IMG/VR virus record: IMGVR_UViG_3300023184_005048
Span: 1 to 55,259 of that record
Length of the DNA: 55,259 nucleotides
From: a virus
Taxonomy: Duplodnaviria > Caudoviricetes
Strand: one strand, 5' to 3'
Within the stretch, counting starts at the first letter, position 1, and each line of letters begins with the position of its first letter. Below, one piece after another: positions 39,708 through 54,883 of this stretch. The notes beneath the pieces are model-generated. The model searched no databases. It was not told the origin of the DNA and saw only the letters and a program-made list of their open reading frames with translations. Position numbers and translations under genes: made by a program.

Positions 39708-40417
39708 TATCTTGCGATTAAAAGTTGAATCTTTATATTCTCTGATGTTGATGAACGGTGATAACCATCAATCAATCTAAACTTACCATCTTTAACTAAA
39801 GCAATACCTCTAATACCATCATAATTCTTATCAGAATAATGGTCAAGATTTTTTGTATTCACTTTTCTATAATGCTCATCTGATCCAAAAATAATACTAT
39901 CTCTTTCAACAGTTTCTAATGAATATTGACGACCTTGTAAAGCAGGTAAAATGTTACCATACTCCAACATTAAAAGATATTCAATTCTTGATGTTAAATC
40001 AATTATTGAAAGAGCTTCATTAATTTGGTCTTCAATTTTTTGAGCAACAGAGTTTTCTAATAAAACATCATCAATTTCTTGACCATAGTATCCACCACAG
40101 ACTTGAACTTCCCAGTTTGATGGTTCGTATGCCTTATTGATTCTTAAAATTCTATCAATGGTATAAATATCAATTTCTTTTGAAACACCACCTAATATAG
40201 AATTAATAGCAGAGTTTCTTTTTGAAGATAAAGAGTTATCAAAAATAGAGTTATATATTTCGTTACCTATTGAAGGTATGTCAACTGTTACAACATGAGC
40301 ATTTTCTAAGGTCTCACAACGGCAAATACCTTCCTCATTACAACCGTGAGCTCCACAATCTCTGTGAGCGTCATAATCGTAATTAGTGTGATACTTAAAA
40401 CTTACTCCAACTATCAT
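39707..40417 (-). CDS. Hypothetical protein with a C-terminal ParB/Srx-like motif
   Basis: FRLIDGYHR; Cys cluster at the N-terminus. Confidence 0.55.
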   Translation of the reverse strand: MIVGVSFKYHTNYDYDAHRDCGAHGCNEEGICRCETLENAHVVTVDIPSIGNEIYNSIFDNSLSSKRNSAINSILGGVSKEIDIYTIDRILRINKAYEPSNWEVQVCGGYYGQEIDDVLLENSVAQKIEDQINEALSIIDLTSRIEYLLMLEYGNILPALQGRQYSLETVERDSIIFGSDEHYRKVNTKNLDHYSDKNYDGIRGIALVKDGKFRLIDGYHRSSTSENIKIQLLIAR

Positions 40418-40728
40418 TTGTTTTTAATTCTTGTTTTGTAGCTTTTACCATCATCTAATTTCTTATAGATGTAAAACTGGTTATATTTTAATTTCATATA
40501 AAGTTCTCTTAAAGAAGAACCCTCTAAGGCATACCAAGTTGTTGGTAGAATCTCATCTTTAACAAAAGGATTCCATCTATTAACTCTATCAATAGTCTTT
40601 TTCTTATCCTTTATTGGTTCATCAAAGTAATAAAAATGTTCGTGTTTAAGAGTAGCTTGTTTCTTTTTAAGTTCTTCTCCAATCTTTTCAATTAAATGTC
40701 TTGTAATGAAATTCATTTTAAATACCAT
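40414..40728 (-). CDS. Hypothetical protein
   Basis: ORF track. Confidence 0.55.
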   Translation of the reverse strand: MVFKMNFITRHLIEKIGEELKKKQATLKHEHFYYFDEPIKDKKKTIDRVNRWNPFVKDEILPTTWYALEGSSLRELYMKLKYNQFYIYKKLDDGKSYKTRIKNK

Positions 40729-41145
40729 TTATACAAATTTACCGTTAACAATTCCGTTGTGATAATATCTAAAGTCTGAAAGGTCTTTTCCTTCAATAAC
40801 TTTCAAATATCCATTAATAGCACCAATTATATTTTGACGACCAGAAGTATTATCAGTATGAGCATACCAATCTGGAAAGTGTTTTACATGGTCTAAACAA
40901 TAGTTGATTAAATAATCAGCCGCATCTTTGCCAGTCCACTCTTTACCATCTTTATCTACACAAGCCAAATCGTGGTCAAATGAAACTAATTCAATTTCAT
41001 TGAAATGTTTATTAACAATTTCAACAAATTCAAAATAGTCACGAGCAATCACCCACTTATCAGTTGGTAAATAATCCAAGCCTAAGCCCTTAACTGCGTT
41101 ATGAGCCATTCCTGGAATTCTGATATCGTCTAAAAAAAGATTCAT
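40729..41145 (-). CDS. Cyclic-phosphate-processing receiver-domain protein
   Basis: LFLDDIR.P, SFDHDL, TG.D, HTDN..G. Confidence 0.75.
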   Translation of the reverse strand: MNLFLDDIRIPGMAHNAVKGLGLDYLPTDKWVIARDYFEFVEIVNKHFNEIELVSFDHDLACVDKDGKEWTGKDAADYLINYCLDHVKHFPDWYAHTDNTSGRQNIIGAINGYLKVIEGKDLSDFRYYHNGIVNGKFV

Positions 41146-41148
41146 TTT

Positions 41149-41325
41149 TTAATTTAAGTACACTCCTTTGTTTGTACAATAAAGGTCTAAATAGAGTGCC
41201 ATATTAAACCAGGTTTCAAATTCTTGATTGTCTGCTGATGTTTCTAATCTTTGGATTAAGAAGTCAGCCATTGGTTGAGCCCAACTCATAATAAATTTAG
41301 CTCTTAATTCTTTTAATTTTTTCAT
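41149..41325 (-). CDS. Hypothetical 58-aa protein
   Basis: Hand-translated MKKLKELRAKFIMSWAQPM...GVYLN; ATGA overlap with the upstream gene. Confidence 0.55.
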   Translation of the reverse strand: MKKLKELRAKFIMSWAQPMADFLIQRLETSADNQEFETWFNMALYLDLYCTNKGVYLN

Positions 41326-41777
41326 ACGTTATAATTATTGTTAAGAAATTCTTTTTCTACTTTAGTAAGTGAGTCTAAACCCACTTGACTTATTCTATCT
41401 AATATAGTGTCAATATCTAAATTGTTGTATATCCAATCATCTAAATCATCAATAAAAAATGAAAATTTCATTGAATCAATTGGATTCACTTTAGGACCTA
41501 ATTCTAAGTTTAAATCAAAATTTGACTTTAATATATCTTTAGATAAATCAGTTAGTTCAAATTTAACTAAATTTTCTGAAAGTACACCTAAATATCTTTT
41601 AACTTCTATTGGTTCAGCTATAGTAAAAAATGTATAAACTCCATCTTCTTCATAATCAAAAAAAGAATCCGCATTCATATCAGCAATCTTCTCCTTATCT
41701 ATGTCAGAAAGTCTGTCATAGTCCTCATTTAAGTCAAATGGCGACTTAGTAAATTTAATTTTGTAAACGCAGTACAT
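41322..41777 (-). CDS. Hypothetical protein
   Basis: ORF; C-terminal IDTILDRISQVGLDSLT..EKEFL motif. Confidence 0.65.
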   Translation of the reverse strand: MYCVYKIKFTKSPFDLNEDYDRLSDIDKEKIADMNADSFFDYEEDGVYTFFTIAEPIEVKRYLGVLSENLVKFELTDLSKDILKSNFDLNLELGPKVNPIDSMKFSFFIDDLDDWIYNNLDIDTILDRISQVGLDSLTKVEKEFLNNNYNV

Positions 41778-41886
41778 AGATTATATATTCACAAATATAA
41801 TAAAATTTTTTTGATTTAGGAAATTTAAATTCATGAAACATCATGATATCCTTTATAAACATTATTAATATTATAAATATAATTGT

Positions 41887-42270
41887 ATGGAAAAAAAGAA
41901 AAGACCTGATAGTTTTGTAGAAAATCGAATGAGTAAGACTTATCCAACGGAAATTGGCGCACCAAAATTTGAGCCAGATAATATTAGTCTATTTAAAATT
42001 GAAAAAACTTCTAAGATAAAAAAATACTATTCGTCAAAATTTGAAGAAATGACGAAAGAGTATGAAAAGCTAATGTCAGAAATTAAAATGAATGAAAGAC
42101 TTTATATGGCTACGCATAACTTTACACCAATCTCTGGTGAAATTTATCACTTATATAAAAAGGAATCCAATGAAGAATTCCTTTCTTTAATATCTCCGGA
42201 ACAATGGAAAAAATTTGAGTTTATCGGCTCTTTCAAATTTTTATCTGATGGAAGATGGGAGGTAGCTTAA
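41887..42270 (+). CDS. DUF2452-like protein
   Basis: F.P..GEIYHLY...FLSLISPEQW...GSF....DGRW. Confidence 0.6.
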   Translation: MEKKKRPDSFVENRMSKTYPTEIGAPKFEPDNISLFKIEKTSKIKKYYSSKFEEMTKEYEKLMSEIKMNERLYMATHNFTPISGEIYHLYKKESNEEFLSLISPEQWKKFEFIGSFKFLSDGRWEVA

Positions 42271-43871
42271 CCTACCCACCCTTCTTTCAAACTTACCGTT
42301 TTATTGAAACTTTTACCATCAGTATCTAAAATATAATACCCTTTTCTCATCATTTGAACTGGCTCCTTGACGTTTAAAACGTGAGGCTCAAAGATTGCCT
42401 TATCATTAATTATAAGTGAACCTGGGTTAATATAATTGATAAAATCATCTTCATTTTTATCTGGTGATTCATCATTAAATAATCTTTCATATTCATTTAC
42501 TCTAACTCTAACTCCGTGTTCAGCAGATACCCAGTGAATAGTTCCTTTAATTTTTCTTTCAAAAGTCATACCCGATCTTGTTAAAGGATCATAAGTACAC
42601 CTAATCTCAATAATTTCTCCTAATTCATTCTTTATAACTTCATTAGCCTTAATAACATAAGCACCTTTTAATCTTACTTCACCACCTAATTTTAATCTGT
42701 GGAATTTGTTATTGGCTTCTTCTCTGAAATCTTCCGCCTCAATAAATAATTCACCACTAAAAGGAATCATTCTCACTCCAGCACTTTCATCACCAGGATT
42801 GTTTTCAACCTCAACCATTTCAGTTCCCATATCCCAATTTGTAATAACTAACTTAACTGGCTCCATGACTCCCATTAATCTATTAGCAACTACATTCAAA
42901 TCAGTTCTTAAACATTCTTCTAAAAGTAAGTAAGAAACAACAGACTCTTTTCTAGTAACAGAAATTCTATCACAAAAATCTTTAATAGCATTTGGTGTAA
43001 AACCTCTTCTTCTTAATCCAGAAATAGTTGGCATTCTTGGATCATCCCAACCCGTAACATAAGATTCTTCTACAAGTCTTTTTAACTTTCTCTTTGACAT
43101 AACTGTATAGTCAATGTTCAAACGAGCAAACTCAGTTTCTTCTGGTAATGAATTTTCTAAATCACAATTTTCTAACACCCACATATATAAAGGTCTATGA
43201 ACTTCAAATTCTAAAGTACAAAGTGAATCAGTGATACCTTCTTTATAATCAGATAAAGGATGAGCAAAGTCATACATTGGATAAATCTTCCAAGTATCAC
43301 CAGTTCTGTGATGTGACTTAGAGATTATTCTATAAATAACTGGATCTCTTAAAATCATATTTGGTGAAGTCATATCAATATTAGCTCTCAATATTTTAGA
43401 ACCTTCAGAGAATTCACCTAATCTCATTCTATTAAATAAGTCTAAGTTTTCTTCTACTGATCTAGACTTGTAAGGTGAGTCTTTACCAACTGAAGTTGGA
43501 GTTCCTTTCATTAAAGCAATTTCTTCAGATGTTGAATCATCAACATAAGCTAAGCCTTTTTTAATTAAAGTAACGGCACAATTATAAAGAAATTCAAAGT
43601 AATCAGATGTATAGAAAATATTAGCTGGTTTGTAGCCAAGCCATTCTATATCTTTTATAATTGACTCTACATAGTGAGTATCTTCAGTAGTTGGATTTGT
43701 ATCATCAAATCTTAGATTACAAGGTCTATTATACTTTTCAGCTAATCCGAAATTTAGTATAATGGATTTAGCGTGACCAATATGGAGATAACCATTTGGC
43801 TCTGGTGGAAATCTTAATGTTAGTTTATCAAGATTGTTTTTGTCTAATATTTTATCTTCAATGAAATTCAT
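42267..43871 (-). CDS. glnS: Glutaminyl-tRNA synthetase
   Basis: RFPPEPNGYLHIGHAK, LRFDDTNP, IYPMYDFAH, CTLEF, MSKRKL, KGTIHWVS. Confidence 0.95.
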   Translation of the reverse strand: MNFIEDKILDKNNLDKLTLRFPPEPNGYLHIGHAKSIILNFGLAEKYNRPCNLRFDDTNPTTEDTHYVESIIKDIEWLGYKPANIFYTSDYFEFLYNCAVTLIKKGLAYVDDSTSEEIALMKGTPTSVGKDSPYKSRSVEENLDLFNRMRLGEFSEGSKILRANIDMTSPNMILRDPVIYRIISKSHHRTGDTWKIYPMYDFAHPLSDYKEGITDSLCTLEFEVHRPLYMWVLENCDLENSLPEETEFARLNIDYTVMSKRKLKRLVEESYVTGWDDPRMPTISGLRRRGFTPNAIKDFCDRISVTRKESVVSYLLLEECLRTDLNVVANRLMGVMEPVKLVITNWDMGTEMVEVENNPGDESAGVRMIPFSGELFIEAEDFREEANNKFHRLKLGGEVRLKGAYVIKANEVIKNELGEIIEIRCTYDPLTRSGMTFERKIKGTIHWVSAEHGVRVRVNEYERLFNDESPDKNEDDFINYINPGSLIINDKAIFEPHVLNVKEPVQMMRKGYYILDTDGKSFNKTVSLKEGWVG

Positions 43872-43889
43872 AATTTTTATATTTTTTAG

Positions 43890-43960
43890 TTGTCTCGCTA
43901 GGATTCGAACCTAGACTAGAAGAGTCAAAATCTTCTGTGCTGCCGTTACACTACGAGACA
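43890..43960 (-). tRNA. tRNA-Gln(UUG)
   Basis: Cloverleaf; GAAGA-TTTTGAC-TCTTC. Confidence 0.9.
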
Positions 43961-43966
43961 TTTTTG

Positions 43967-44038
43967 TTGCTCCACTTGGACTCGAACCAAGCTCATCTGT
44001 TTCAAAGACAGATATGATCACCCATATACTATGGAGCA
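43967..44038 (-). tRNA. tRNA-Gln(UUG)
   Basis: Cloverleaf; TCTGT-CTTTGAA-ACAGA. Confidence 0.88.
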
Positions 44039-44046
44039 AAATGTTG

Positions 44047-44117
44047 TTGTCTTACTAGGACTCGAACCTAGAATAGAAGAGTCAAAATCTTCTGTGTTGC
44101 CATTACACTATAAGACA
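44047..44117 (-). tRNA. tRNA-Gln(UUG)
   Basis: Cloverleaf; GAAGA-TTTTGAC-TCTTC. Confidence 0.9.
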
Positions 44118-44119
44118 AT

Positions 44120-44154
44120 AAAAAAACCCTACTCAATCAGATTGAATAGGGTTT
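44120..44154 (-). terminator. Attenuator terminator before the tRNA-Gln x3/glnS unit
   Basis: AACCCTATTCAAT-ctg-ATTGAGTAGGGTT hairpin plus T-run. Confidence 0.85.
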
Positions 44155-44182
44155 GTAAAGTTTTAACAATACGATACCGTTA

Positions 44183-44236
44183 TCAATCTGTTCGATTAAT
44201 TTGTTGTTGTTGTTGGTATTGTGATGTTGTTGTCAT
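44183..44236 (-). CDS. Gln-rich leader peptide MTTTSQYQQQQQINRTD
   Basis: Hand-translated; six CAA codons; its 3' end CAGATTGA is complementary to the terminator 5' arm and loop. Confidence 0.85.
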   Translation of the reverse strand: MTTTSQYQQQQQINRTD

Positions 44237-44266
44237 AATTCTATTTATTAATATTTTGTTTCTTTG

Positions 44267-44343
44267 TCGAGATGGCAGGATTCGAACCTGCGAGTTCTCC
44301 TGCTCCCAAAGCAGGCGGGGTAACCGGACTCCCCAACATCTCG
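44267..44343 (-). tRNA. tRNA-Pro(UGG)
   Basis: CCTGC-TTTGGGA-GCAGG; C1-G72, A73. Confidence 0.9.
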
Positions 44344-44351
44344 TATTTTAG

Positions 44352-44425
44352 CGGTCCCGACGGGATTCGAACCCGCACCTCGCACCGTGACAGGGTGGTA
44401 TTGTAAACCATTCAACCACGGGACC
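44352..44425 (-). tRNA. tRNA-Asp(GUC)
   Basis: Loop CTGTCAC; G73. Confidence 0.9.
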
Positions 44426-44489
44426 GTTTTTGAGAATTCTTTTACTCTATTCTCTAAAGAGTATCTTTTGCCTCAAAGGCTACTTGTTG

Positions 44490-44561
44490 CGGTCTAGAAG
44501 GGTTTCGATCCCTCTACTTCTGCGTGACAGGCAGATATGATAGCCACTTCACCACTAGACC
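44490..44561 (-). tRNA. tRNA-Asp(GUC)
   Basis: TCTGC-CTGTCAC-GCAGA; T-loop ATCGAAA. Confidence 0.85.
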
Positions 44562-44568
44562 ATTTTTG

Positions 44569-44641
44569 TCGGGAAGGTCGGAATCGAACCGACTAACTGA
44601 AGCCTCCAGAGCCCCCGTGCTTAAACCTTAGTCACTTCCCG
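44569..44641 (-). tRNA. Atypical tRNA-Pro(UGG)
   Basis: CGGGAAG/CTTCCCG acceptor; loop TCTGGAG (C33, A37); weak D-arm. Confidence 0.65.
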
Positions 44642-44656
44642 TTTTTTATATAAAAC

Positions 44657-44689
44657 AAAAAACCCAGTTAATCTTTCGACTAACTGGGT
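44657..44689 (-). terminator. Attenuator terminator before the Pro/Asp/Gln tRNA array
   Basis: ACCCAGTTAGTC-GAAA-GATTAACTGGGT hairpin plus T-run. Confidence 0.85.
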
Positions 44690-44712
44690 AATGTTTCATA
44701 GGTAATATATTC

Positions 44713-44811
44713 TTAACCTAAAACTACATAGTTAGCCTCTTTCGAACCAGGATCCTGATCGATTACAACTTGCGGTTGCGGGTTAACGATATTTAAGTTT
44801 AAGTTTTTCAT
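44713..44811 (-). CDS. Leader peptide MKNLNLNIVNPQPQVVIDQDPGSKEANYVVLG
   Basis: Hand-translated; Pro/Gln/Asp cluster followed by GGCTAACT, complementary to the terminator 5' arm. Confidence 0.75.
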   Translation of the reverse strand: MKNLNLNIVNPQPQVVIDQDPGSKEANYVVLG

Positions 44812-44816
44812 TTCAG

Positions 44817-44889
44817 TATATATTAAAAAGGATTTCTTCCTTTTGTTCTTATTTTATACAAATATACAACAAAGTTTTAATTTGTCAAA
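44817..44889 (-). promoter_or_regulatory. Tandem promoters: AATATATA (44817-44824) and Bacteroidota-type TATATTTG/TTTG (44859-44889)
   Basis: Both recurring motifs lie directly upstream of the leader ORF. Confidence 0.6.
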
Positions 44890-44901
44890 TATTTTTTATT
44901 T

Positions 44902-45270
44902 TTATTTGAAATTTTCTTTTGATTTGAAATCTAATATTTCAATATTAAAAGGTGTTAATTTTCTACCTAGTTCTTCAACTATAGTAAGTATTTCTCTTTC
45001 ATTATAAACAGTAATGTTAAAATGAGCAACAGCATCTATTTCAACAGCACCATCTTCTAATTCAGCAACAGTTCCTTCATCAAGAATATTAACTTCAACA
45101 GACTCTTGATCGTAAAACAACTCGCTAACTTTAGATAAACCTAAGATTATTTTATCTTCAGTGATATCTTCACCTCTTAATAATATGTCAATATTATAAG
45201 ATTCTTTTGGTTCAGAATATCTGAATCCTACGGTTCTTTGATATTCATTTATTGATTGTAAATATTTCAT
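44902..45270 (-). CDS. Hypothetical protein with MKYLQSINE tag
   Basis: ORF; AATATATA 4 nt upstream. Confidence 0.65.
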   Translation of the reverse strand: MKYLQSINEYQRTVGFRYSEPKESYNIDILLRGEDITEDKIILGLSKVSELFYDQESVEVNILDEGTVAELEDGAVEIDAVAHFNITVYNEREILTIVEELGRKLTPFNIEILDFKSKENFK

Positions 45271-45294
45271 AGATTATATATTAATTTTTAAAAC

Positions 45295-45325
45295 AAAAAA
45301 CCCTCAGATAAAAATCTAAGGGCTT
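45295..45325 (-). terminator. Intrinsic terminator after the cold-shock gene
   Basis: GCCCTTAGAT...ATCTGAGGGT hairpin plus T-run. Confidence 0.75.
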
Positions 45326-45349
45326 TAATTCTTTAGTACTAAAAATATA

Positions 45350-45541
45350 TTAAGCGTTAACTGATACGTTAACTGCGTTTAATCCTTTTTTACCTTCTGT
45401 TACTTCAAAGCTAACTGAATCTTTTTCTTTAATTTCATCAATTAATCCTGTAGCGTGTACAAACACATCTGTTCCGTTCTCGTCTGTGATGAAACCAAAT
45501 CCTTTAGCTTCATTGTAGAACTTTACTGTTCCTGTTTTCAT
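45350..45541 (-). CDS. Cold-shock domain protein
   Basis: GTVKFYNEAKGFGFI, DVFVH, GKKGLNAVNV. Confidence 0.95.
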   Translation of the reverse strand: MKTGTVKFYNEAKGFGFITDENGTDVFVHATGLIDEIKEKDSVSFEVTEGKKGLNAVNVSVNA

Positions 45542-45606
45542 TCTTTTATTCTTGTTTATTTTTATTTTTTGGTATTATTACCACTTGTTATATATTGAAT
45601 ATGAAA

Positions 45607-46017
45607 TTAGTTTATACCTAAATCATTTAATATTTTATCTCTTAATTTAGGAACATCATGAATAGCATAAACTGAATTTCTTGTAATTAGAATATTATCA
45701 TCTATTATTTTATTAACAGTTGATGTGTACCAATTTACTACACCATAAGACTCACCTATCTTTGGTTCTTTATTTTGTATTCCTTTTAATGTGTTTGATG
45801 GTTTATCAAATCTAGAAAATCTATCAGGACGATCACTTGGTGTTCCAACAATAGATTGTTGAGTTTTTAGATATTTATATTCATCACCACATTTTTCTTT
45901 TAGAATTGTGACATAGTGGTCAAAAATAGGACCAGCATTATAAACAACCATAATAGTATCTCTACCTTCAGTTGGTATAATAGATCCTATCTTTAATATT
46001 TCAACTTCTTTATTCAA
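45607..46017 (-). CDS. Hypothetical protein
   Basis: ORF; WYTSTV..I...TRNSVY; C-terminal RDKILNDLGI. Confidence 0.65.
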   Translation of the reverse strand: MNKEVEILKIGSIIPTEGRDTIMVVYNAGPIFDHYVTILKEKCGDEYKYLKTQQSIVGTPSDRPDRFSRFDKPSNTLKGIQNKEPKIGESYGVVNWYTSTVNKIIDDNILITRNSVYAIHDVPKLRDKILNDLGIN

Positions 46018-46255
46018 TTATCTTATTTATTTTTTTATTTCTTATAAATGATTTTACCCAATAATCTGGTATCTCAATATATCCAATATCTTCTTTATTC
46101 GGTTCAGAAAATTCTGTTTTATAGAATCCTTCAGTTAAATGTATATTAGTTATATTAGGAATGCCATCAACAGTTTTACATCCCTTTTCTAAAAGAAAAG
46201 AATTTACAGCTTCAACTACATCAGATGATAAAAATCTTCCTTCAATATCTCTCAT
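46010..46255 (-). CDS. Hypothetical protein
   Basis: ORF; C-terminal RNKKINKII. Confidence 0.6.
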   Translation of the reverse strand: MRDIEGRFLSSDVVEAVNSFLLEKGCKTVDGIPNITNIHLTEGFYKTEFSEPNKEDIGYIEIPDYWVKSFIRNKKINKIIE

Positions 46256-46704
46256 ATTAAATATTTATCACCAGAGCCTGGTCTGAATGATTGTAGATTT
46301 CTAATAGCAGAAGAACTGATATGTTGAAATTCTTCATCACAACGAAAGAAAACAACATCAATATCTTTTTTGAAATCATTAATGAATTTTAATTGGTTAT
46401 CTTCATAAGCCAAGTCGTCACCGTTTCTTAGACCACGGACTAAAACAACTTTATAACCTTCTGATTCTTTTTTCTCAATAAGTTCGTGTAAGAAAGTAGT
46501 GTAAACTTCTACACTTCTTCCAATCTTATCTGATATTTCTAATGATCTTGATAAGGCATCACCACCATTTGCTTTCTCTGGATTAACTCCAATAGCAATT
46601 AAAACATTTCCTTCGCCAAATATCCTTTCAGCTTTCTCAACTATGTTAAGATGTCCGATGTGAAAGGGATTAAAAGAACCGGCATAAATGGCTAAAGTTT
46701 TCAT
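46252..46704 (-). CDS. coaD: Phosphopantetheine adenylyltransferase-like nucleotidyltransferase
   Basis: IYAGSFNPFHIGH, NPEK, VRGLRN..D..YE, HISSSAIR. Confidence 0.8.
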   Translation of the reverse strand: MKTLAIYAGSFNPFHIGHLNIVEKAERIFGEGNVLIAIGVNPEKANGGDALSRSLEISDKIGRSVEVYTTFLHELIEKKESEGYKVVLVRGLRNGDDLAYEDNQLKFINDFKKDIDVVFFRCDEEFQHISSSAIRNLQSFRPGSGDKYLI

Positions 46705-46868
46705 ATTATTTTAATTTTAAATATCTTTTACCTAAGATATTAATCATTTCATAATTCTTTTCTTTTTGAGCTTTTTCAAACTCATTAAATATTCTTCTTT
46801 TTAATCTTCTTCTTTTAAGAAATGTAAACATACTCTCTATATTAAAAGAGCCGGTTTCCCGGCTCATA

Positions 46869-48128
46869 TTAGTCAAACTCTAAATCAGAAGCGTATCCAT
46901 CGTATAAGTTTTCACTTCTTTTATCTTTTTGTTCTTGTTGATAAGCAACTGTGTTGTAATAGTTATCTAAACTATCAGAACCTAAGTCGTCACCTTTTGA
47001 GTAATCCAATTCTGGTAAGTACTCTAACAAGTCATTACGATTACACTCTGTTGTGTGGTTACCCGCATCTTGTTTATAATCAACTTTCAATTTGAAACCA
47101 TCCCACTCACAAGAGTCGTATTGTAAATCTAAAGATTTTAATAAGTTATTAATAATCATTGATTCATAATCAACACGTTCTTTACATAAGTCAACTGATA
47201 CAACTTTCTTAGTTAAAGAATCAATCTCTACATTAGAAACGTAGTTGTATTTTTTATCGTGGAACCAAACTTTATCAGTTCTAGGCTCATATTTTTTAGT
47301 GATGTTATTATTCCATCTTGATGCGCCTACACCACCTGAGTAGTAATCATCCCATTCATCCCATCCGTATCCATAACCACTATATGATTTGTATTCAGTT
47401 TTAGAAGGATCTCTATCAACAGGTAAGCCATTCCAATCAACTAATAAACAAGCCTCAGCCAATTTAGTTAAGTGTTCAATGTCTTGTTGTTCTGAAAATG
47501 TGTGTTCTGAACGGTAACCTACAGAGATATTAGTACACTCAGAGTAGATTTTAATAAATTGAACAGAGTCAGTTAAGATACCAGTTGGGTCATTTTTGTA
47601 TGAGAAAGAATCATCAGCCAAGTTTAATTGTTTTGATAAAGCCTCACCAAAAGTATCTGAACAACATCTTTGAGAAGATTGGAAAGTAATAACCGAATCA
47701 TTACCTCTACGGTCAAATGAAATTACTTTGTTGATACCTTCAATCTTTTGGTCTTTTTGAACATTGGCAACCTTTCTTGAACCAACACAACCAACTTCTT
47801 CACCTAAGAAAAAGTAGTAAAGTCCTGGTATTTTGTTTTCAATCATATAAAGCATAATTGTTACACCAGCTTTATCATCTGCTCCTAAAATTGATTTACC
47901 ATCAGTCTTAATAATGTTACCGTCAAAAACGTGATTAACTTGAGTAAGTGCTGAAGTGGCTGTATCTAAGTGAGAAGTAAACATTACATCACTCTCACCA
48001 ATCTTGATAAATAAGTTACCAAACTCGTCTTTTTGTAATTCTGAATTTAACAAAGGGAAAACATCTTCCTCAGTTCCGTGAGGGTATGTTCTACTTGTTA
48101 GTTCTAGAAATTTATCTTTAATGTTCAT
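46869..48128 (-). CDS. M20/M28-family zinc peptidase-like protein
   Basis: SHLDT, LGADDKAG, GEEVG, FDRRG, NISVGY..EH. Confidence 0.8.
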   Translation of the reverse strand: MNIKDKFLELTSRTYPHGTEEDVFPLLNSELQKDEFGNLFIKIGESDVMFTSHLDTATSALTQVNHVFDGNIIKTDGKSILGADDKAGVTIMLYMIENKIPGLYYFFLGEEVGCVGSRKVANVQKDQKIEGINKVISFDRRGNDSVITFQSSQRCCSDTFGEALSKQLNLADDSFSYKNDPTGILTDSVQFIKIYSECTNISVGYRSEHTFSEQQDIEHLTKLAEACLLVDWNGLPVDRDPSKTEYKSYSGYGYGWDEWDDYYSGGVGASRWNNNITKKYEPRTDKVWFHDKKYNYVSNVEIDSLTKKVVSVDLCKERVDYESMIINNLLKSLDLQYDSCEWDGFKLKVDYKQDAGNHTTECNRNDLLEYLPELDYSKGDDLGSDSLDNYYNTVAYQQEQKDKRSENLYDGYASDLEFD

Positions 48129-48244
48129 CTTGTCTATAGTTTTTTTCTACTTATATACAAATATACGGAGGTTATCCACAATATCCAAATTTATTAAGAA
48201 TTAATTTAAATAATATCTGAAATTACTTTTTTAATATATAAGTT

Positions 48245-50530
48245 ATGTCTCAACAAATAGTTTCAAATTTAGAAAATGGTACTCTTCTTATATCGGATAA
48301 GTTTGATATAAACGCATCAGCAAACGCTGTTGATGCTACTCCATATTTTAATACAGTTGGATCTGAATACATAATTAGTTTTGTAAATTTACAAAATATT
48401 AGTCAGTTAACCAATTTTAAATATGATACTTTAGGTTTAACAGATACAAGATTCTTAAAAAATTATTATCGTATTTCTAGAGACGGTAATGCTTGGACTG
48501 ACTGGTTAGACCTTAAAAGAAACATTGATAACTTTCCTACAGTTGATCCAAGAGATCCTTTATACTTAGATATTAAATGGGTTAGAGGTGGTTCTTCTCA
48601 AGTTGGTGCTATTAGAATATTAGAATATTCAATTAATGGTACTTTAGAAAGAACAATGTTTGAAAGTGCGGGCGACGGTATTAGTACTGTTAATTTAGCA
48701 CCAGGTGAAAATACAATTTGGTCAGCACCTTTTATTTATAAAGTATTTGGTATAACTGATGTAGAAGTAATAGCACCGACAAGTCTTACAGGTGTTGATA
48801 TTAAATATAGATTCTCTCAAGATAATTCAAGAACCTGGTCTAATTGGGAACCATTCACAAAAGAAAATATAACTACAACTAGAATTAACCCAATTAGATT
48901 TTTTCAAATTGAATACTCTATTACTAATAATACATCATCTACTGTAGGAATACAAGATATTAATATTATTGGTGACTTTCAAAATGTTAGTAAAGATTAC
49001 TTCAAAACTAATTTATATGGTATTAGAGAATGTTGTCAGTCTAATCTAACCGGATATACTGATGCTAGTGGTAATTTTGTACCAGCTAATAATACAAATG
49101 GTTCAGGAACTGGAGTTGGTGGTGGTATATCAAATTCAGGAGGTGCTTGTGATACAACAGGTGCTGGTTCAACTTTACCTCAAATGAATGATCAAGATAA
49201 AGCAAATTTATTTAACCCATACAAACAAAATACAGCTATGGATTTATTGAATAAATTAAGTGCTGATGCTGAACAAGTATTTGGACATAAAGTTATTTAC
49301 TTTGTTACTGATCCTGATAAAAGAGGTCAAGACCACACCATGCATGAATATCAATTATATAATGTTGTTTGTGAAGGTAATATTAAAGTATCGGTTGATG
49401 GTAATAACTTCCCAGATTCTCAAATTGTAATGAATCAATTTGATTTAAGTCTTTTTGAATCTATGAATGTTCATATAACAAAAAAACAATTTAAGGAAAT
49501 ATTTGGTCCACAAAGAAGACCAAGTAAAGAAGACTTTTTATATTTCTGTGATGTTAATAGAATGTTCCAAGTTGACCACGCTCAACAGTTTAGAAATTTT
49601 AATAACTCAGCAATTTACTACAAACTAGTTCTGAAAAAATACACTCAAAAAGCCAATGTCAAAGCTGGTACTCAAGAGATTCAAAACAAGTTACAACAAC
49701 TTACTAAGAATTCTACTATCAACGAATTATTTGGAATTGAAAATGCTCAAGATAAAGCTTCAATTGCTAACAAAGAACAATTTGCTCCTTTAACAAAGGA
49801 AACTATTAGATTAGAATATAAAGCCACAATTGATAAAGAATTAATTGAAAACTCCTCAACTATTATTAGTAAAGCTCATTATGATCTTTCATCTGTTGAT
49901 TATGGACAAGTCGCTGTTAAATATAAAAACTTTGATCCTTTATTAAGAGTATCTGATAACATTGGATATCAAATTTGGTTTAAAATTAATAACTATATTA
50001 CTAATGAGGTTTATAACTTCATGGATTACTATGATGCTACTAACTCATTAGGTTGGAAAGTTGATTTATCAAATGATGCTATTCAAGTTAAATTAAATTC
50101 AGATACTTATACTTATGATTTAATGGGTTATTCATCAGATCAAAATATGGCATTTGAAGAAGATGTTTGGTATTGCTATGTTCTTAATATAAATCAAAGA
50201 AATAGAAAATTAGAACATTATGTTTATAAGAGAAATGTTGATGATGAATCAGATGCTGCTAATTTGTCTAATACGATACTTAGAAAAGTTTATCAATATA
50301 CACAAGATATTACACCTATCACTTATCAAATTGAAAGTAATGTTACTTGTCAAATTCTTGCTTCTGATATGTCAGTTACCAACATTAGATTATTTATGGA
50401 AGATATTCCAGCTGAGCAACATAATAAAATATGTAATCAATATATTATTAGAGACGATTCTAAATATCTTGTTTTTGCTGATAACGCCACTACAAGATTA
50501 TATCTACCGAAATTTCCACTATATGAATAA
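48245..50530 (+). CDS. Virion protein with a T4 gp14-like neck domain
   Basis: FGHKVIYF...F...F.EIFG...RPSKEDFLYF...RMFQV.H...YKLVLKKY; late motif at 48233-48240. Confidence 0.6.
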   Translation: MSQQIVSNLENGTLLISDKFDINASANAVDATPYFNTVGSEYIISFVNLQNISQLTNFKYDTLGLTDTRFLKNYYRISRDGNAWTDWLDLKRNIDNFPTVDPRDPLYLDIKWVRGGSSQVGAIRILEYSINGTLERTMFESAGDGISTVNLAPGENTIWSAPFIYKVFGITDVEVIAPTSLTGVDIKYRFSQDNSRTWSNWEPFTKENITTTRINPIRFFQIEYSITNNTSSTVGIQDINIIGDFQNVSKDYFKTNLYGIRECCQSNLTGYTDASGNFVPANNTNGSGTGVGGGISNSGGACDTTGAGSTLPQMNDQDKANLFNPYKQNTAMDLLNKLSADAEQVFGHKVIYFVTDPDKRGQDHTMHEYQLYNVVCEGNIKVSVDGNNFPDSQIVMNQFDLSLFESMNVHITKKQFKEIFGPQRRPSKEDFLYFCDVNRMFQVDHAQQFRNFNNSAIYYKLVLKKYTQKANVKAGTQEIQNKLQQLTKNSTINELFGIENAQDKASIANKEQFAPLTKETIRLEYKATIDKELIENSSTIISKAHYDLSSVDYGQVAVKYKNFDPLLRVSDNIGYQIWFKINNYITNEVYNFMDYYDATNSLGWKVDLSNDAIQVKLNSDTYTYDLMGYSSDQNMAFEEDVWYCYVLNINQRNRKLEHYVYKRNVDDESDAANLSNTILRKVYQYTQDITPITYQIESNVTCQILASDMSVTNIRLFMEDIPAEQHNKICNQYIIRDDSKYLVFADNATTRLYLPKFPLYE

Positions 50531-50531
50531 T

Positions 50532-50566
50532 AAAAAAGCCTCTGATTTTTCAGAGGCTTTCTTTTT
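50532..50566. terminator. Bidirectional terminator between convergent genes
   Basis: AAAAAAGCCTCTGA-tttt-TCAGAGGCTTT. Confidence 0.8.
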
Positions 50567-52190
50567 ATAAAGTATTTTGAATTCTTATTAATGACTCATC
50601 CCTACCAAGGATTTCCATTGTTGATACCAAGTCTGGACCCGGCATACCACCTGTGATAGCAACTCTTAAAGCTGGCATTATCTTACCCATCTTAACACCC
50701 ATTTCTTGACAAAGATCGTGAATATTTTGTTTAATAGTCTCAGCATTCCAATCAATTGACTTTGTTATAAAAGCACTAAATACTTTCTTATAATCATCAG
50801 TCAATAACTTAACATCTGTTTCTTTAATCACAATTGGCTTAAAGAAGATATCAGCAACCACTTGTAAATCTTTTGTGAAGACCGCTCTCTTTTTACAGAT
50901 ATCCACAATCTTAGAAAGATTTTCTGGTGAATATTGATATTGGTCACCCATATCAATATTAGAAAGAAGTTCATCATCACTTCTATAAGTGTTCAAATGT
51001 TGAGCATTAAAGTGTTTAGCTTTTTCAACATCAAAACGAGCACCGGCTTTATGAACGTGAGATAAATCAAACTTAGAAATCATATCAGCCATTGTCATTA
51101 CTTCAGTAGTATCAGTTGGAGACCAACCTAATAGTACTAAGAAGTTTAACATAGCTTGTGGTTCATAACCTTCATCTTTGAAACCAAGATATTTAACCAT
51201 ATTACCTTTATCATCTTCTCCTTCACCACCCATCGGGAAAGCAGGAATACCCATAGAAAGAGCTTTACGTTTAGACAACTTGCCTTTACCATCTGGATTT
51301 AAAATCAATGGTAAATGAGCAAAAGTAGGAGCAGTCCAACCAAATGCTTCATATAACATTAAATGAAGCGGAGTTGAAGGTAGCCATTCTTCACCACGAA
51401 TAACGTGAGTTGTTCCCATATCATGGTCGTCACAAACATTAGCCATATGATATGTTGGAATACCATTTGATTTAACTAAAACTTTATCATCAGTTTGATT
51501 TGTATTCAAACTAACTTCACCACGAATAACATCAGTAACAGTAATTGTTCTGTTTTCTGGTGTTTTGAAACGAATTACAAATGGAGTTTTATTAGCAAGT
51601 AAAGCATCAACTTCTTCTTTTGGTAAAGAAAGTGAATTTCTCATTGACATACGAGTTTTAGCATCGTAAGCAAAGTGAGCATTTTCAGCTCTAACTTTAG
51701 CAATATCTTCTTCAGTATCAAAAGCATAATAAGCCATACCCTTATCTAAAAGAGTTTGAATATGTTCAGAGTAATCTCTTTCCGATTGACGGTAAGGACC
51801 ATTAGGACCACCTTTCCAAGGCGCATAGTCTGGTTCAATACCACACCACTCTAAAGAATCTTGGATATACTTTTCAGCATCACCAACAAATCTTTTTTGG
51901 TCAGTATCTTCAATACGAACATAAAATATACCACCGTGTTTTTTAGCAAACAGATAGTTATAAAGGGCAGTACGAACTCCACCGATGTGTAGAAATCCTG
52001 TTGGTGAAGGAGCAAAACGAGTTACTACTTTACCGGAAGGTGTAATAGTATCTAAAGCATCCAAACTTTTTTGAACATCAGGGGATTGTCCATCATCATG
52101 AGTCGCAAGTGTATGAAGAGCATCGTCACTCATTTCACTTTTTGATTCAGCGAGAAATTTATCTCTATTTTTAATGTATTTCATGTCCAT
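50565..52190 (-). CDS. gltX: Glutamyl-tRNA synthetase with a ~50 aa N-terminal extension (likely start 52184)
   Basis: RFAPSPTGFLHIGG, RIEDTD, YRQSER, HVIRGEEW, KLSKR. Confidence 0.95.
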   Translation of the reverse strand: MDMKYIKNRDKFLAESKSEMSDDALHTLATHDDGQSPDVQKSLDALDTITPSGKVVTRFAPSPTGFLHIGGVRTALYNYLFAKKHGGIFYVRIEDTDQKRFVGDAEKYIQDSLEWCGIEPDYAPWKGGPNGPYRQSERDYSEHIQTLLDKGMAYYAFDTEEDIAKVRAENAHFAYDAKTRMSMRNSLSLPKEEVDALLANKTPFVIRFKTPENRTITVTDVIRGEVSLNTNQTDDKVLVKSNGIPTYHMANVCDDHDMGTTHVIRGEEWLPSTPLHLMLYEAFGWTAPTFAHLPLILNPDGKGKLSKRKALSMGIPAFPMGGEGEDDKGNMVKYLGFKDEGYEPQAMLNFLVLLGWSPTDTTEVMTMADMISKFDLSHVHKAGARFDVEKAKHFNAQHLNTYRSDDELLSNIDMGDQYQYSPENLSKIVDICKKRAVFTKDLQVVADIFFKPIVIKETDVKLLTDDYKKVFSAFITKSIDWNAETIKQNIHDLCQEMGVKMGKIMPALRVAITGGMPGPDLVSTMEILGRDESLIRIQNTL

Positions 52191-52217
52191 ATATATTATT
52201 TTTTAATCTAAAAATTA

Positions 52218-52355
52218 TTAATCTTCAATTAAGAATCCAATTATTATATACCAAAGTAAAGCCCATCCACTATGAAAGAACCAGATTACAAAAAATAATC
52301 TAAACCAAAAACGGTCAATACCGGTTTTATTTTGTAGCCGTGTACAAGTACTCAT
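52218..52355 (-). CDS. Small PspC-like membrane protein
   Basis: Hand-translated MSTCTRLQNKTGIDRFWFRLFFVIWFFHSGWALLWYIIIGFLIED; TAAATTTG promoter motif at 52378-52385. Confidence 0.55.
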   Translation of the reverse strand: MSTCTRLQNKTGIDRFWFRLFFVIWFFHSGWALLWYIIIGFLIED

Positions 52356-52419
52356 ATATTTATATTAAATTAGATTACAAATTTAGTAAAAAGAATTCTA
52401 ATAAACAAATATATACATT

Positions 52420-52998
52420 ATGAAATACTTAAAAAGATTTAACGAAGATATTGAAGCCACTATTAAACCAAATGGTAATATTAGTGCTAATATAGATGTT
52501 AAAACTGACGATGATAATACTATCTATGATAAAAGATGGGAAAATGAACTATCTGAGTTTATTACGATAAACTATCATGGTAAATTATATAAATTCAAAA
52601 AAGATAATATAATGTTACATTCTGATATGGTTCAGATAACTTATGCCTCTACACCACTTAATAGTGATGAACAAGGTGAAATTTGGGGCACGCCAGATAC
52701 TTTAGAATTTGATATTTATTTTGTTAAAGATAATGAAACAGATAAAGTAAGATTAACAGTTGATATTACTTATGGTGATTTAATGGCTTGTGAATTTACA
52801 GCTGAAGCTCCTAATAAAATAAAAGTGGTAGAATATACATCCTACCACTCTAAATTTGATCCAAGCAATACTGTATTTGCCTTAGTAGATGAATCTCTAC
52901 AATCCTTCATAAACTTCCTAAATAGATTTGAAGGAATGAAACTTAAAAAAGAAGATTTTAAGTTTTTGGATCAATATGACAATTACTTGCCAAATTAA
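52420..52998 (+). CDS. Hypothetical protein with MKYLKRFNE tag
   Basis: ORF; AATATATA at 52408-52415. Confidence 0.7.
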   Translation: MKYLKRFNEDIEATIKPNGNISANIDVKTDDDNTIYDKRWENELSEFITINYHGKLYKFKKDNIMLHSDMVQITYASTPLNSDEQGEIWGTPDTLEFDIYFVKDNETDKVRLTVDITYGDLMACEFTAEAPNKIKVVEYTSYHSKFDPSNTVFALVDESLQSFINFLNRFEGMKLKKEDFKFLDQYDNYLPN

Positions 52999-53207
52999 GA
53001 TATCCATCTGATTAAATACTTTGAATCCATTAAGTATTCAAAATCAGCATCTCCCATATCTGAAACAGGAACCTCAAATTTAATTTCAACCGGTTCACCT
53101 TCAGATTCGATAATTGCTAAGTAATAAGATACACCTTTTCTGATAAACTTAAACTCGGCTTTTGGATTTTGCTTATACAAAGCTTTTTTAATTTCATTCT
53201 TTTCCAT
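52995..53207 (-). CDS. Hypothetical protein
   Basis: ORF; KKALYKQNP, F.VPVSDMGDADF...K.LIRW. Confidence 0.65.
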   Translation of the reverse strand: MEKNEIKKALYKQNPKAEFKFIRKGVSYYLAIIESEGEPVEIKFEVPVSDMGDADFEYLMDSKYLIRWIS

Positions 53208-53229
53208 TTTTATTGGTTTTTTTATCGAG

Positions 53230-53310
53230 TATCAGAAGAGAGACTTGAACTCTCATACCGTTAGGCGCTGGCTTTTGAAACCAGTGTGTATACCATTCCA
53301 CCATTCTGAC
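53230..53310 (-). tRNA. tRNA-Leu(CAA)
   Basis: CTGGT-TTCAAAA-GCCAG; V-arm; A73. Confidence 0.88.
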
Positions 53311-53315
53311 ATTTG

Positions 53316-53386
53316 TAGCGTGTGTGGGGTTCGAACCCACTTATCAGTCCTTATGAGAGACAGCTCTTTTCCACTAAGCCACGCCA
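53316..53386 (-). tRNA. tRNA(CAU), Met or Ile2, with atypical D-arm
   Basis: Loop CTCATAA; T-arm GTGGG-TTCGAAC-CCCAC. Confidence 0.7.
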
Positions 53387-53395
53387 TATTATTAG

Positions 53396-53478
53396 TGCCC
53401 AAAGAGAGACTCGAACTCTCACGTCCTTTCGGACACCGGCTTCTTAGACCGGCGTGTCTACCATTCCACCATCTGGGC
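53396..53478 (-). tRNA. tRNA-Leu(AAG)
   Basis: CCGGT-CTAAGAA-GCCGG; Leu-type D-loop and V-arm. Confidence 0.88.
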
Positions 53479-53483
53479 ATTTG

Positions 53484-53556
53484 AGCAGATACCCAGAGTC
53501 GAACTGGAATCTCGTCCGTACCAAGGACGTGTAATCACCGATTATACGATAACTGC
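53484..53556 (-). tRNA. tRNA-Thr(GGU)
   Basis: CGTCC-TTGGTAC-GGACG. Confidence 0.85.
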
Positions 53557-53562
53557 TTGTTG

Positions 53563-53649
53563 TAGCGGGGGCAGGATTCGAACCTGACGTGTCACTTGCG
53601 CAACCCTGGGTTATGAGCCCAGTGAGTTTGACCTCTACTCTACCCCGCG
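53563..53649 (-). tRNA. Initiator-type tRNA-fMet(CAU) with a long variable arm
   Basis: C1:U72 mismatch, GGG/CCC anticodon stem, loop CTCATAA, extra V-arm. Confidence 0.8.
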
Positions 53650-53654
53650 ATATG

Positions 53655-53739
53655 TACCTGGAGCGGGACTCGAACCCGCACGGGCATTTCTGCCCACTGG
53701 ATTTTAAGTCCAGCGTGTCTACCATTCCACCACCCAGGC
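53655..53739 (-). tRNA. tRNA-Leu(UAA)
   Basis: CTGGA-CTTAAAA-TCCAG. Confidence 0.92.
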
Positions 53740-53755
53740 AGGTGATTTTATTTTG

Positions 53756-53839
53756 AGCCGATGGAGGGACTCGAACCCCCGTTGGACTATTCGTCTCTGG
53801 TTTACAAAACCAGTGCTGTCGCCACTGAGCCACATCGGC
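53756..53839 (-). tRNA. tRNA-Thr(UGU) with a long variable arm
   Basis: CTGGT-TTTGTAA-ACCAG; V-arm GAC-GAATA-GTC. Confidence 0.82.
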
Positions 53840-53842
53840 ATA

Positions 53843-53959
53843 TAATGGAGGAAAGTCTAAAGAGTGATTTTACTGAAGGACTTGAACCTTCAAAAGTTTG
53901 TTTTTAAGACAAATGTGTATACCATTTCACGAAGTAACACTCTTAATCACCATCCATTA
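53843..53959 (-). ncRNA. tRNA-like RNA (UAA loop) with a greatly extended acceptor helix
   Basis: D-, anticodon- and T-arms enclosed by TTACT/AGTAA, AAGAGTG/CACTCTT and TAATGGA/TCCATTA. Confidence 0.6.
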
Positions 53960-53964
53960 TTTTG

Positions 53965-54036
53965 TTGCCTTGGTGGGTAACGATCCCACTACCTCTTCCA
54001 TGTCAAGGAAGTGCTCTCCCATTGAGCTACAAGGCA
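53965..54036 (-). tRNA. tRNA-Val(GAC)
   Basis: CTTCC-TTGACAT-GGAAG. Confidence 0.88.
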
Positions 54037-54043
54037 ATTTTTG

Positions 54044-54190
54044 ACAGTAGGGTGGGAATCGAACCCACCTTCCCAATCCGAACTAAATGACATTTTCTAG
54101 AATATCAAATAATCAAGTTTGGTTTTTAACCCGGACCAGTTCTTTATGTGGCTTCTCTAGGAGTTACCACCTAATATAGGGTCCTACTGA
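54044..54190 (-). ncRNA. tRNA-like RNA: acceptor stem plus T-arm around a ~110 nt insert
   Basis: CAGTAG/CTACTG termini; GGTGGG-TTCGATT-CCCACC. Confidence 0.6.
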
Positions 54191-54194
54191 TTTG

Positions 54195-54266
54195 AGCTTC
54201 TTACCGGTAACGATCCGATTTCTCTAGTTTACAAGACTAGCGCATCACCATTAATGCTTAAGAAGC
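54195..54266 (-). tRNA. tRNA-Thr(UGU)
   Basis: CTAGT-CTTGTAA-ACTAG. Confidence 0.85.
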
Positions 54267-54271
54267 GTTTG

Positions 54272-54354
54272 AGGTACTGACTGGGTTCGAACCAGTGTGA
54301 CAGATTTTGCAGATCTGTGCCTCTCGTCTTTCGACACCACTCGGCCACAGTACC
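54272..54354 (-). tRNA. tRNA-Cys(GCA) with a hairpin inserted in the D-loop
   Basis: CAGAT-CTGCAAA-ATCTG; U73; GTC-GAAA-GAC insert. Confidence 0.85.
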
Positions 54355-54359
54355 ATTTG

Positions 54360-54433
54360 TTGGAATAGTAGGACTCGAACCTACAACCTTTCGCGTATCA
54401 GGCGAATGCTCTAACCAGTTGAGCTATATTCCA
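54360..54433 (-). tRNA. tRNA-Ile(GAU)
   Basis: TTCGC-CTGATAC-GCGAA. Confidence 0.92.
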
Positions 54434-54439
54434 ATTTTG

Positions 54440-54512
54440 TAGTCCCGGTCGGTTACGATCCGACTCCCTCCACTATGTAACAGTGGCGCTCCCCCGATTG
54501 AGCTACAGGACT
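54440..54512 (-). tRNA. tRNA-Val(UAC)
   Basis: CCACT-GTTACAT-AGTGG. Confidence 0.85.
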
Positions 54513-54517
54513 ATTTG

Positions 54518-54603: not shown

Positions 54604-54609
54604 ATTTTG

Positions 54610-54692: not shown

Positions 54693-54695
54693 ATC

Positions 54696-54801: not shown

Positions 54802-54805
54802 TTTG

Positions 54806-54878: not shown

Positions 54879-54883
54879 ATTTG

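Follow-up and report, generated by a model that had tools for sequence, protein, structure and literature searches.

A predicted glutamine leader-peptide attenuator ahead of three tRNA-Gln genes and glnS in a relative of uncultured huge phages

Phage tRNAs and aminoacyl-tRNA synthetases are usually regarded as constitutively expressed extras that offset codon bias or counter host defences. Whether their expression may instead be regulated is the question raised by a minus-strand locus of the viral record IMGVR_UViG_3300023184_005048 (Duplodnaviria; Caudoviricetes), analysed over its whole length of 55,259 nt (the window). In this locus, three tRNA-Gln(UUG) genes and glnS, which encodes glutaminyl-tRNA synthetase (GlnRS), are preceded by a short Gln-rich open reading frame (ORF) and an intrinsic terminator. 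We found that this element is very probably a ribosome-mediated leader-peptide transcription attenuator for Gln, gating the three tRNA-Gln genes and glnS. The analysis was computational: sequence features, conservation, alternative pairings and geometry were observed, and from them we infer leader translation, stalling and the switch itself. The G+C content of the window is 29.5%, and its closest DNA matches, at about 76% identity, are the uncultured huge phages LR745206.1 (634,780 bp) and LR756502.1 (642,428 bp). In the main text of the huge-phage genome paper, the Mahaphage clade is the home of genomes above 634 kb, Bacteroidetes hosts are predicted there, and phage tRNAs and synthetases are discussed; the words attenuat-, leader and terminator have zero occurrences in that main text (PMC7162821).

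The leader ORF (44183–44236, minus strand) consists of 17 codons and a TGA stop and encodes the peptide MTTTSQYQQQQQINRTD. Its ATG (44236–44234) is followed by ACA ACA ACA TCA CAA TAC, five CAA codons, and ATT AAT CGA ACA GAT, with the TGA at 44185–44183. The regulatory Gln codons lie in 44201–44221, as a single CAA at 44221–44219 and five consecutive CAA codons at 44215–44201. After a 28-nt spacer comes the terminator (44120–44154, minus strand; -16.4 kcal/mol), a 14-bp hairpin with a U-tract containing a 7-T run, in which the stem-loop occupies 44154–44124 and the U-tract reaches 44120. Its 5' arm is region 3 (44154–44141), its loop lies at 44140–44138, and its 3' arm is region 4 (44137–44124). 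Region 2, the antiterminator strand (44176–44190; CAGAUUGAU), contains the leader stop codon and pairs with the terminator 5' arm; it is made up of CAGAUUGA(U) at 44190–44182, which includes the TGA, and GGU at 44178–44176. The segment CAGATTGA (44190–44183) has its exact reverse complement TCAATCTG at 44145–44138, where UCAAUCUG spans the arm and the loop. The initial annotation had described the leader, its codons with the six CAA, and the complementary 8-mers, and all of these proved exact on the minus strand. Its attenuator layout had the 2:3 and 3:4 pairings right and missed region 1, the anti-antiterminator strand AUUAAUC (44194–44200, minus strand), with which the set of 1:2, 2:3 and 3:4 is complete. 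Region 1 is formed by the Ile-Asn-Arg codons directly after the Gln run, pairs (44200–44194) with GAUUGAU (44188–44182), and would be covered by a ribosome that has stalled at the end of the Gln run. A further, outer helix is formed between ACAAUACC, which precedes the run, and GGUAU..GU of the spacer.

From this arrangement the following switch is proposed. RNA polymerase would arrive from upstream and transcribe the 17-codon leader. When charged tRNA-Gln is plentiful, the translating ribosome would reach the UGA inside region 2 and keep region 2 covered, so that the terminator 3:4 (44154–44124) folds and transcription ends 3–6 nt short of the first tRNA-Gln. Under a shortage of charged tRNA-Gln, the ribosome would stall in the CAA run (44215–44201) and cover region 1, leaving region 2 free because its start lies 10 nt downstream of the run; region 2 would then pair with the emerging terminator 5' arm (8 bp plus GGU:ACC), no terminator would form, and the three tRNA-Gln genes and glnS would be transcribed. 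With no ribosome present, region 1 and the outer helix could sequester region 2. The outcome would be a negative feedback in which the phage makes Gln-decoding capacity on demand.

Related loci were fetched from viral and metagenome contigs with the GlnRS protein as query, giving 167 sources, 140 of which were non-redundant by glnS. A same-strand tRNA-Gln lies upstream of glnS in 29 non-redundant loci; 3 of these are cut at the locus edge, which leaves 26 assessable, and 23 of the 26 carry a Gln-rich leader with a terminator. The element was present in 0 of the 110 loci without an upstream tRNA-Gln, which mostly have GlnRS of at most 57% identity on cellular-looking contigs. We collected 25 distinct leaders, from the window and 24 further loci with GlnRS identities of 53–93%. 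These include L023, which glnS de-duplication had merged with L021 and whose leader is distinct, and L098, where the leader and terminator are present and no tRNA-Gln was detected. The folding and duplex tests took in 21 loci, and the spacing and region 1:2 tests took in 25. In a survey blind to ORFs, we found 30 distinct junctions with a tRNA gene at most 18 nt after a terminator, 23 of which begin with tRNA-Gln. A Gln-rich leader stands at 22 of these 23 Gln-first junctions, 21 times with a run of at least 3 Gln codons (3–7) and in L020 with 4 Gln spread over 8 codons; the exception, L009:1414, heads a Gln-Pro-Asp cluster and has the leader ...NPQPQDQD.... The covariance model R1, with 18 leaders as its seed, retrieved 24 of the 25 leaders, six of which were not in the seed, and had exactly one match in the window, at 44236–44120, with 122.9 bits.

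An ATG ORF in the Gln frame, of 14–28 codons, is predicted from the sequence of all 25 leaders, and ATG ORFs in the two other frames covered the Gln run in 2 of 50 checks. Gln accounts for 146 of the 473 leader residues (31%), compared with 2.9% in window ORFs of at least 150 aa, the background set also used for codon usage. Runs of 3–7 consecutive Gln codons are found in 24 of the 25 leaders, L020 again having its 4 Gln spread over 8 codons, and huge-phage leaders show the same arrangement (MTTTQQIQQQQINQTD and MTTSFQQQQQQQINRTD; LR745206.1, LR756502.1). The codons within the runs vary between CAA and CAG: CAG makes up 27 of the 146 Gln codons, and at least one CAG occurs in 21 of the 25 leaders. 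It is present in 10 of 11 leaders with a downstream tRNA-Gln(CUG) and in 11 of 14 without one, that is, without association. We therefore rejected the CAA-only, UUG-specific sensing that the initial annotation had read from the window, which is not conserved. In the window ORFs the ratio of CAA to CAG is 374:42, and the CAA-only leader of the window is ordinary codon bias. Sensing would thus take place at the level of Gln and not of the CAA codon.

The correspondence between leader codons and downstream tRNAs extends beyond Gln. The two other tRNA clusters of the window and five more in LR745206.1, a genome with 61 tRNA matches, have leaders enriched for the amino acids of their own clusters. 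The third unit of the window (55065–55233, minus strand) consists of the leader MKTMNLNMNMNTLTVVNNTLCIRRSEGFVISKRFVS and a terminator (55095–55065), followed by an array of 16-plus tRNAs (55046–53229; Ile, Asn, Arg, Leu, Val, Thr, Met) that the leader amino acids mirror. Its leader segment CUCUGAGGGCUUCG pairs with the terminator arm (-17.6 kcal/mol, p = 0.002), and the counterpart arrays of L022 and L169 also have a similar leader in front of them. The five further units of LR745206.1 (L167–L169; 342.5–344.3 kb, 364.9–367.2 kb and 387.9–390.3 kb) carry codon-matched leaders of the types His/Phe/Trp/Lys, Arg/Ser, Glu/Tyr, Ile/Gly/Met and one for a multi-amino-acid array, with antiterminator p-values of 0.004–0.06. 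When the leaders of seven LR745206.1 units were assigned to clusters in all 5040 permutations, the true assignment gave the top summed enrichment, and the column rank was 1 in 7 of 7. This match independently backs the sensing logic proposed for the Gln element. The leader types seen so far are Gln; Pro/Asp(/Gln); His/Phe/Trp/Lys; Arg/Ser; Glu/Tyr; Ile/Gly/Met; and a composite leader with about eight amino acids ahead of a 16–19-tRNA array. It is likely that the whole tRNA complement of this huge-phage clade is regulated by modular codon-matched leader attenuators, one per tRNA cluster. If so, the phage would detect the charged tRNAs that become limiting during infection, whether by a mismatch in codon usage, by host shut-off or by defences that target tRNAs, and would respond by transcribing precisely the tRNA genes and synthetase that match. 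A virus would then carry a circuit that supplies translation components on demand.

The alternative that survives best, itself quite unlikely, accepts the switch as real and lets it report general translation capacity, so that any slowing of ribosomes, as in host shut-off or ribosome shortage, would lead to read-through and the Gln run would merely be a convenient slow stretch. The architecture alone cannot separate a Gln-specific from a general stall, and the mixture of CAA and CAG in the relatives, whatever tRNA genes lie downstream, suits such a sensor. However, a general sensor would not need a match between leader and tRNAs, and the Gln-rich leaders at 22 of 23 Gln-first junctions, together with a leader composition that follows the identity of the tRNAs behind it in seven units of a single genome (best of 5040 assignments), argue for sensing of the cognate amino acid.

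A Gln attenuator depends on the competition between region 2 and the terminator. In the duplex test, the stretch between the last Gln codon and the terminator was searched for its best pairing with the terminator 5' arm plus loop, and the result was compared with dinucleotide shuffles. In the window, the 2:3 duplex (8 bp plus GGU:ACC) reached -13.1 kcal/mol, compared with -4.3 ± 1.4 kcal/mol for 500 shuffles (p = 0.002). The complementarity that the initial annotation had pointed out thus lies beyond chance, and the arrangement recurs in the 24 further loci. Across the 21 loci the p-values ranged from 0.002 to 0.074, at most 0.05 in 19 of them and 0.066 and 0.074 in the other two. In all 25 loci, 6–14 nt separate the first paired antiterminator nucleotide from the last Gln codon, which is the distance at which RNA leaves a ribosome with that codon in its A site; a start within a 5–13 nt window was found in 24 of 25 loci, compared with 22% of shuffles. 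Region 2 of the window starts 10 nt after the last Gln codon, and its 11 paired nucleotides all fall within the footprint of the terminating ribosome. Lineages with unrelated regions 2 and 3 (L008, L021, L023, L033, L098, L101 and L116) pair best with their own terminators, examples being GGGUUCCGG/CCUGGAACU in L008 and AGAUCGU/ACGAUCU in L116. Among 13 representatives, own-terminator pairing ranked first in both row and column for 7, and members of the GAUUGA/UCAAUC class cross-pair, as expected from a common motif. The terminator hairpins range from -15.9 to -29.3 kcal/mol across loci, each with a U-tract. On the model-based alignment, which was fitted to this helix, the terminator helix was 97.8% paired and 9 of its 14 pairs had changed on both sides.

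We also weighed the reading in which the hairpin is an ordinary leaky terminator or a processing signal between tRNA sub-operons, with an ORF and a complementarity of no regulatory role; we consider it very unlikely. A strong terminator after a tRNA cluster, the fact that a single 8-bp match is not rare in AT-rich DNA, and the antiterminator of the window's first leader, which taken alone gives p = 0.22, are in keeping with it. Against it, the ORF, Gln run, frame and stop position are kept over GlnRS identities of 53–93%, the spacing between Gln run and antiterminator is fixed in all 25 loci although the sequences differ, and the tRNA-Gln genes have no space for a promoter of their own.

Folding with ribosome masks is consistent with a Gln attenuator. 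When the mask ended 9 nt beyond the last Gln codon, the antiterminator formed in 21 of 21 loci; when it ended 10 nt beyond the stop, the best competitor of the terminator was no better than -3.3 kcal/mol in 21 of 21. The terminating ribosome covers every region-2 pair in 20 of 25 loci. The claim of the initial annotation that a stall on Gln would free region 2 and a ribosome at the stop would mask it is therefore supported by comparative and folding evidence. In 24 of 25 loci, the ribosome-free minimum free energy (MFE) structure pairs at least half of the region-2 nucleotides with nucleotides that belong to the Gln run or adjoin it. In an alignment fitted to this structure, helix 1:2 was 90.5% paired, and both sides had changed in 6 of its 7 pairs. 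The spacer motif GGUAUCGUAUUG (44167–44178, minus strand) lies between regions 2 and 3 and is a GG-N8-UG with GUAUUG in invariant or nearly invariant columns. A GG-N8-YG motif with GUAUUG occurs in 18 of 25 leaders, compared with 2.0 expected, a count inflated by the kinship of the loci. It may be an RNA polymerase pause site, given a likeness to the consensus elemental pause that we assume speculatively, or merely the 3' strand of the outer helix.

The peptides outside the Gln run are unrelated between lineages (for example ...TLNKGSGIALS, ...SERSDRLAVPVRVT and ...LNLRKLKLD), and in L015 a 1-nt frame difference alters the peptide tail, with the nucleotides kept and the stop codon at the same place. 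These results suggest that selection acts on the Gln codons, the stop position and the RNA, and not on the peptide. That the Gln-rich peptide is itself the effector, as a nascent-chain arrest peptide or a small protein acting in trans, is thus scarcely credible: the N-terminal MTT/MRT and C-terminal INxTD conserved in the closest group would fit it, but the INxTD codons coincide with RNA regions 1 and 2, the peptides diverge beyond the Gln run, and L015 retains the nucleotides and not the tail.

Several observations weigh against a ribosome-mediated Gln attenuator. Three loci with a tRNA-Gln upstream of glnS (L099, L031 and L127) are without the element. In 5 of 25 loci, those with longer ORFs, a ribosome at the stop covers region 2 only in part. 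In the ribosome-free nascent folds, the antiterminator and not helix 1:2 is the MFE structure in 10 of 21 loci, including the window, which leaves the default outcome for untranslated RNA uncertain and subject to the kinetics of folding. Taken column by column on the model-built alignment A4, helix 2:3 was 68.7% paired, compared with 64.7 ± 1.6% in shuffles, and 6 of 500 shuffles were as high; slid registers of the helix gave 22.9–52.1%. This modest column-wise support arises partly because stems of unequal length are out of register, and per-locus duplexes with shuffles and cross-pairing were preferred over column-based covariation for this helix. No Shine-Dalgarno sequence was found at the leader, and none at glnS either. 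Finally, the window leader starts 29 nt after tRNA-Pro, inside a tRNA precursor, which is an unusual site for a translated ORF.

The genes behind the terminator are those that the initial annotation had named, as ARAGORN calls and a TIGR00440 match showed. The three tRNA-Gln(UUG) genes lie at 44117–44046, 44038–43966 and 43960–43889 (minus strand; ARAGORN), the first beginning 6 nt past the terminator stem. The distance from the terminator to the first tRNA-Gln is 5–16 nt in 23 of 24 loci and 62 nt in L009, and a gap of 5–16 nt leaves no room for a separate promoter. The glnS gene (42267–43871, minus strand) encodes a glutamine--tRNA ligase of 534 aa with matches to TIGR00440, PF00749, PF03950 and PF20974; residues 19–532 reach 655.3 bits against TIGR00440 (cut-off 425.8), which marks a true GlnRS. 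No terminator-like site was found on the minus strand over 44124–42267, in agreement with the earlier remark that no hairpin was visible between the three tRNA-Gln genes and glnS. The glnS gene is the last of the transcription unit, and the next ORF is convergent. A promoter within the element was rejected: the sole sigma-70-like match (44136–44107, 9/12) would initiate inside the first tRNA-Gln. An opposite-strand ORF (44031–44351, plus strand, 106 aa) was judged spurious, with no Pfam match at E ≤ 0.1 and an equivalent in 3 of 25 loci. Contigs from two RNA libraries (X1 record 7, 44042–44209; X6 record 26, 44042–44216) span the terminator; such contigs are not evidence for transcripts, their ends or their levels, and could stem from carried-over DNA. 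RNA is the recorded material for 8 of the 20 listed runs; none of them contained half of the sampled words, and all are stored as contigs.

The Gln attenuator is placed directly upstream of the tRNA-Gln genes and glnS, as had been claimed, and it turned out to be internal to a longer unit. The upstream part of this unit (44266–44888, minus strand) comprises a promoter-like site, a first leader, a terminator, a tRNA-like sequence, two tRNA-Asp genes and tRNA-Pro. The promoter-like site, the best of the region (44888–44861), reads TTGACA-16-TATATT and continues into TATATTTG. It is followed by a small ORF, the Pro/Asp-type leader MKNLNLNIVNPQPQVVIDQDPGSKEANYVVLG (44713–44811, minus strand), which carries Pro, Gln and Asp codons and ends at a stop codon. 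The first terminator (44662–44689, minus strand) precedes the Asp, Asp and Pro tRNAs. The tRNA-Pro ends at 44266, and an A/T-rich spacer separates it from the ATG of the Gln leader. With the promoter-like site and the Pro/Asp leader lying upstream, transcription would reach the Gln attenuator only past the first attenuator. The segment GGCUAACU of the Pro/Asp leader pairs with its terminator arm 11 nt after the last Pro codon. This 8-bp match is not significant alone, and the Pro/Asp leader type is kept in L001, L002, L003, L005, L009 and L020. In 7 loci whose Gln leader has no preceding tRNAs, a TAnnTTTG motif, which we take to resemble the Bacteroidetes -7 promoter box, lies 43–55 nt upstream of the leader ATG. 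The tRNA-like sequence after the first terminator (44569–44641, minus strand) scored 28.6 bits in Rfam, where the gathering score is 29, and was not called by ARAGORN; the homologous position in L001 was called tRNA-Pro(UGG).

Compared with known systems, the predicted element resembles the trp, his, leu, thr and phe attenuators of E. coli (Trp_leader, His_leader and others in Rfam) in its short ORF with a run of regulatory codons, in the mutually exclusive 1:2, 2:3 and 3:4 pairings, in the intrinsic terminator and in a stop codon that lets the ribosome block region 2; the trp attenuator served for the comparison of geometry. In contrast to them, it has no Rfam match in 44236–44120 at E ≤ 1, its regulatory amino acid is Gln, it gates tRNA genes and an aminoacyl-tRNA synthetase where theirs gate biosynthetic enzymes, and it is phage-borne and, in the window, sits in the middle of a tRNA operon. 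Among the synthetase genes treated in the sources cited here, pheST in gamma-proteobacteria and trpS and leuS in Streptomyces are under leader attenuation (PMC1262725), and a His leader stands before hisS paralogues in bacilli (PMC2965389). Those attenuators, as presented in these two sources, are alike in that the regulatory codons match the amino acid of the synthetase (PMC1262725, PMC2965389); they differ in that they are cellular, control the synthetase only and include none for GlnRS, whereas the first products regulated by the phage element would be three tRNAs of the same specificity. The T-box of Firmicutes follows a similar logic, in which a shortage of charged tRNA leads to antitermination and more synthetase. 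A T-box, however, binds uncharged tRNA directly and needs no translation, whereas the phage element has a conserved ORF with cognate codons. The Rfam scan (40000–55259, E ≤ 1) gave no T-box match in the region and no leader, T-box or riboswitch match within 44120–44236.

To our knowledge, no Gln leader peptide has been described, and a literature search at the level of abstracts returned no leader with Gln codons and no attenuator gating tRNA genes, neither in phages nor elsewhere. The mechanism is a known one, and its Gln specificity, its tRNA genes and synthetase as targets and its viral setting appear to be new. A conserved attenuator would mean that the expression of phage tRNAs and synthetases is under feedback control by the pool of charged tRNA, and leader-peptide attenuation would extend to Gln, to tRNA genes and to viruses. 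What each tRNA cluster is built to sense could be read from its leader sequence, and the expression of huge-phage translation genes, inaccessible so far for lack of cultures, would become testable with simple reporters.

Some loci depart from the common arrangement. In L098 (350–495), about 460 nt separate glnS from a Gln leader (MIIISIYKNMSQTQTHIQQLQQQFDTKG, closed by a stop codon) and its terminator upstream; no tRNA-Gln was detected in this interval, so the element may gate glnS without tRNA genes in this lineage. In L022, L024 and L026 (glnS at 1501; GlnRS 72% identical), glnS stands directly behind a large multi-tRNA array and there is no Gln leader. ARAGORN reported irregular anticodon loops in clusters at L001:3422–3495, L017:649–722, L003:2244–2315 and L015:307–381: a 4-nt 'gtag', a 4-nt 'ttga' in the tRNA-Gln position, and a 2-nt 'gt' and 'tg'. 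These may be degenerate copies, intron-bearing genes or unusual decoders. At T-run 3277 of L169, a terminator is preceded by MKTMTINNRNRLTDII, with no tRNA within the fetched stretch. In the window, the ORF convergent with glnS (41887–42270, plus strand) has a DUF2452 domain (E = 1.3e-14) and overlaps the glnS stop codon by 4 nt. An Rfam Phe_leader match at 50529–50586 (31.8 bits, gathering score 55) was rejected as a plain terminator hairpin after a gene, and weak sau-19 and BSnc120 matches at the same place fall on this hairpin, AAAGCCTCTGA...TCAGAGGCTTTTTT.

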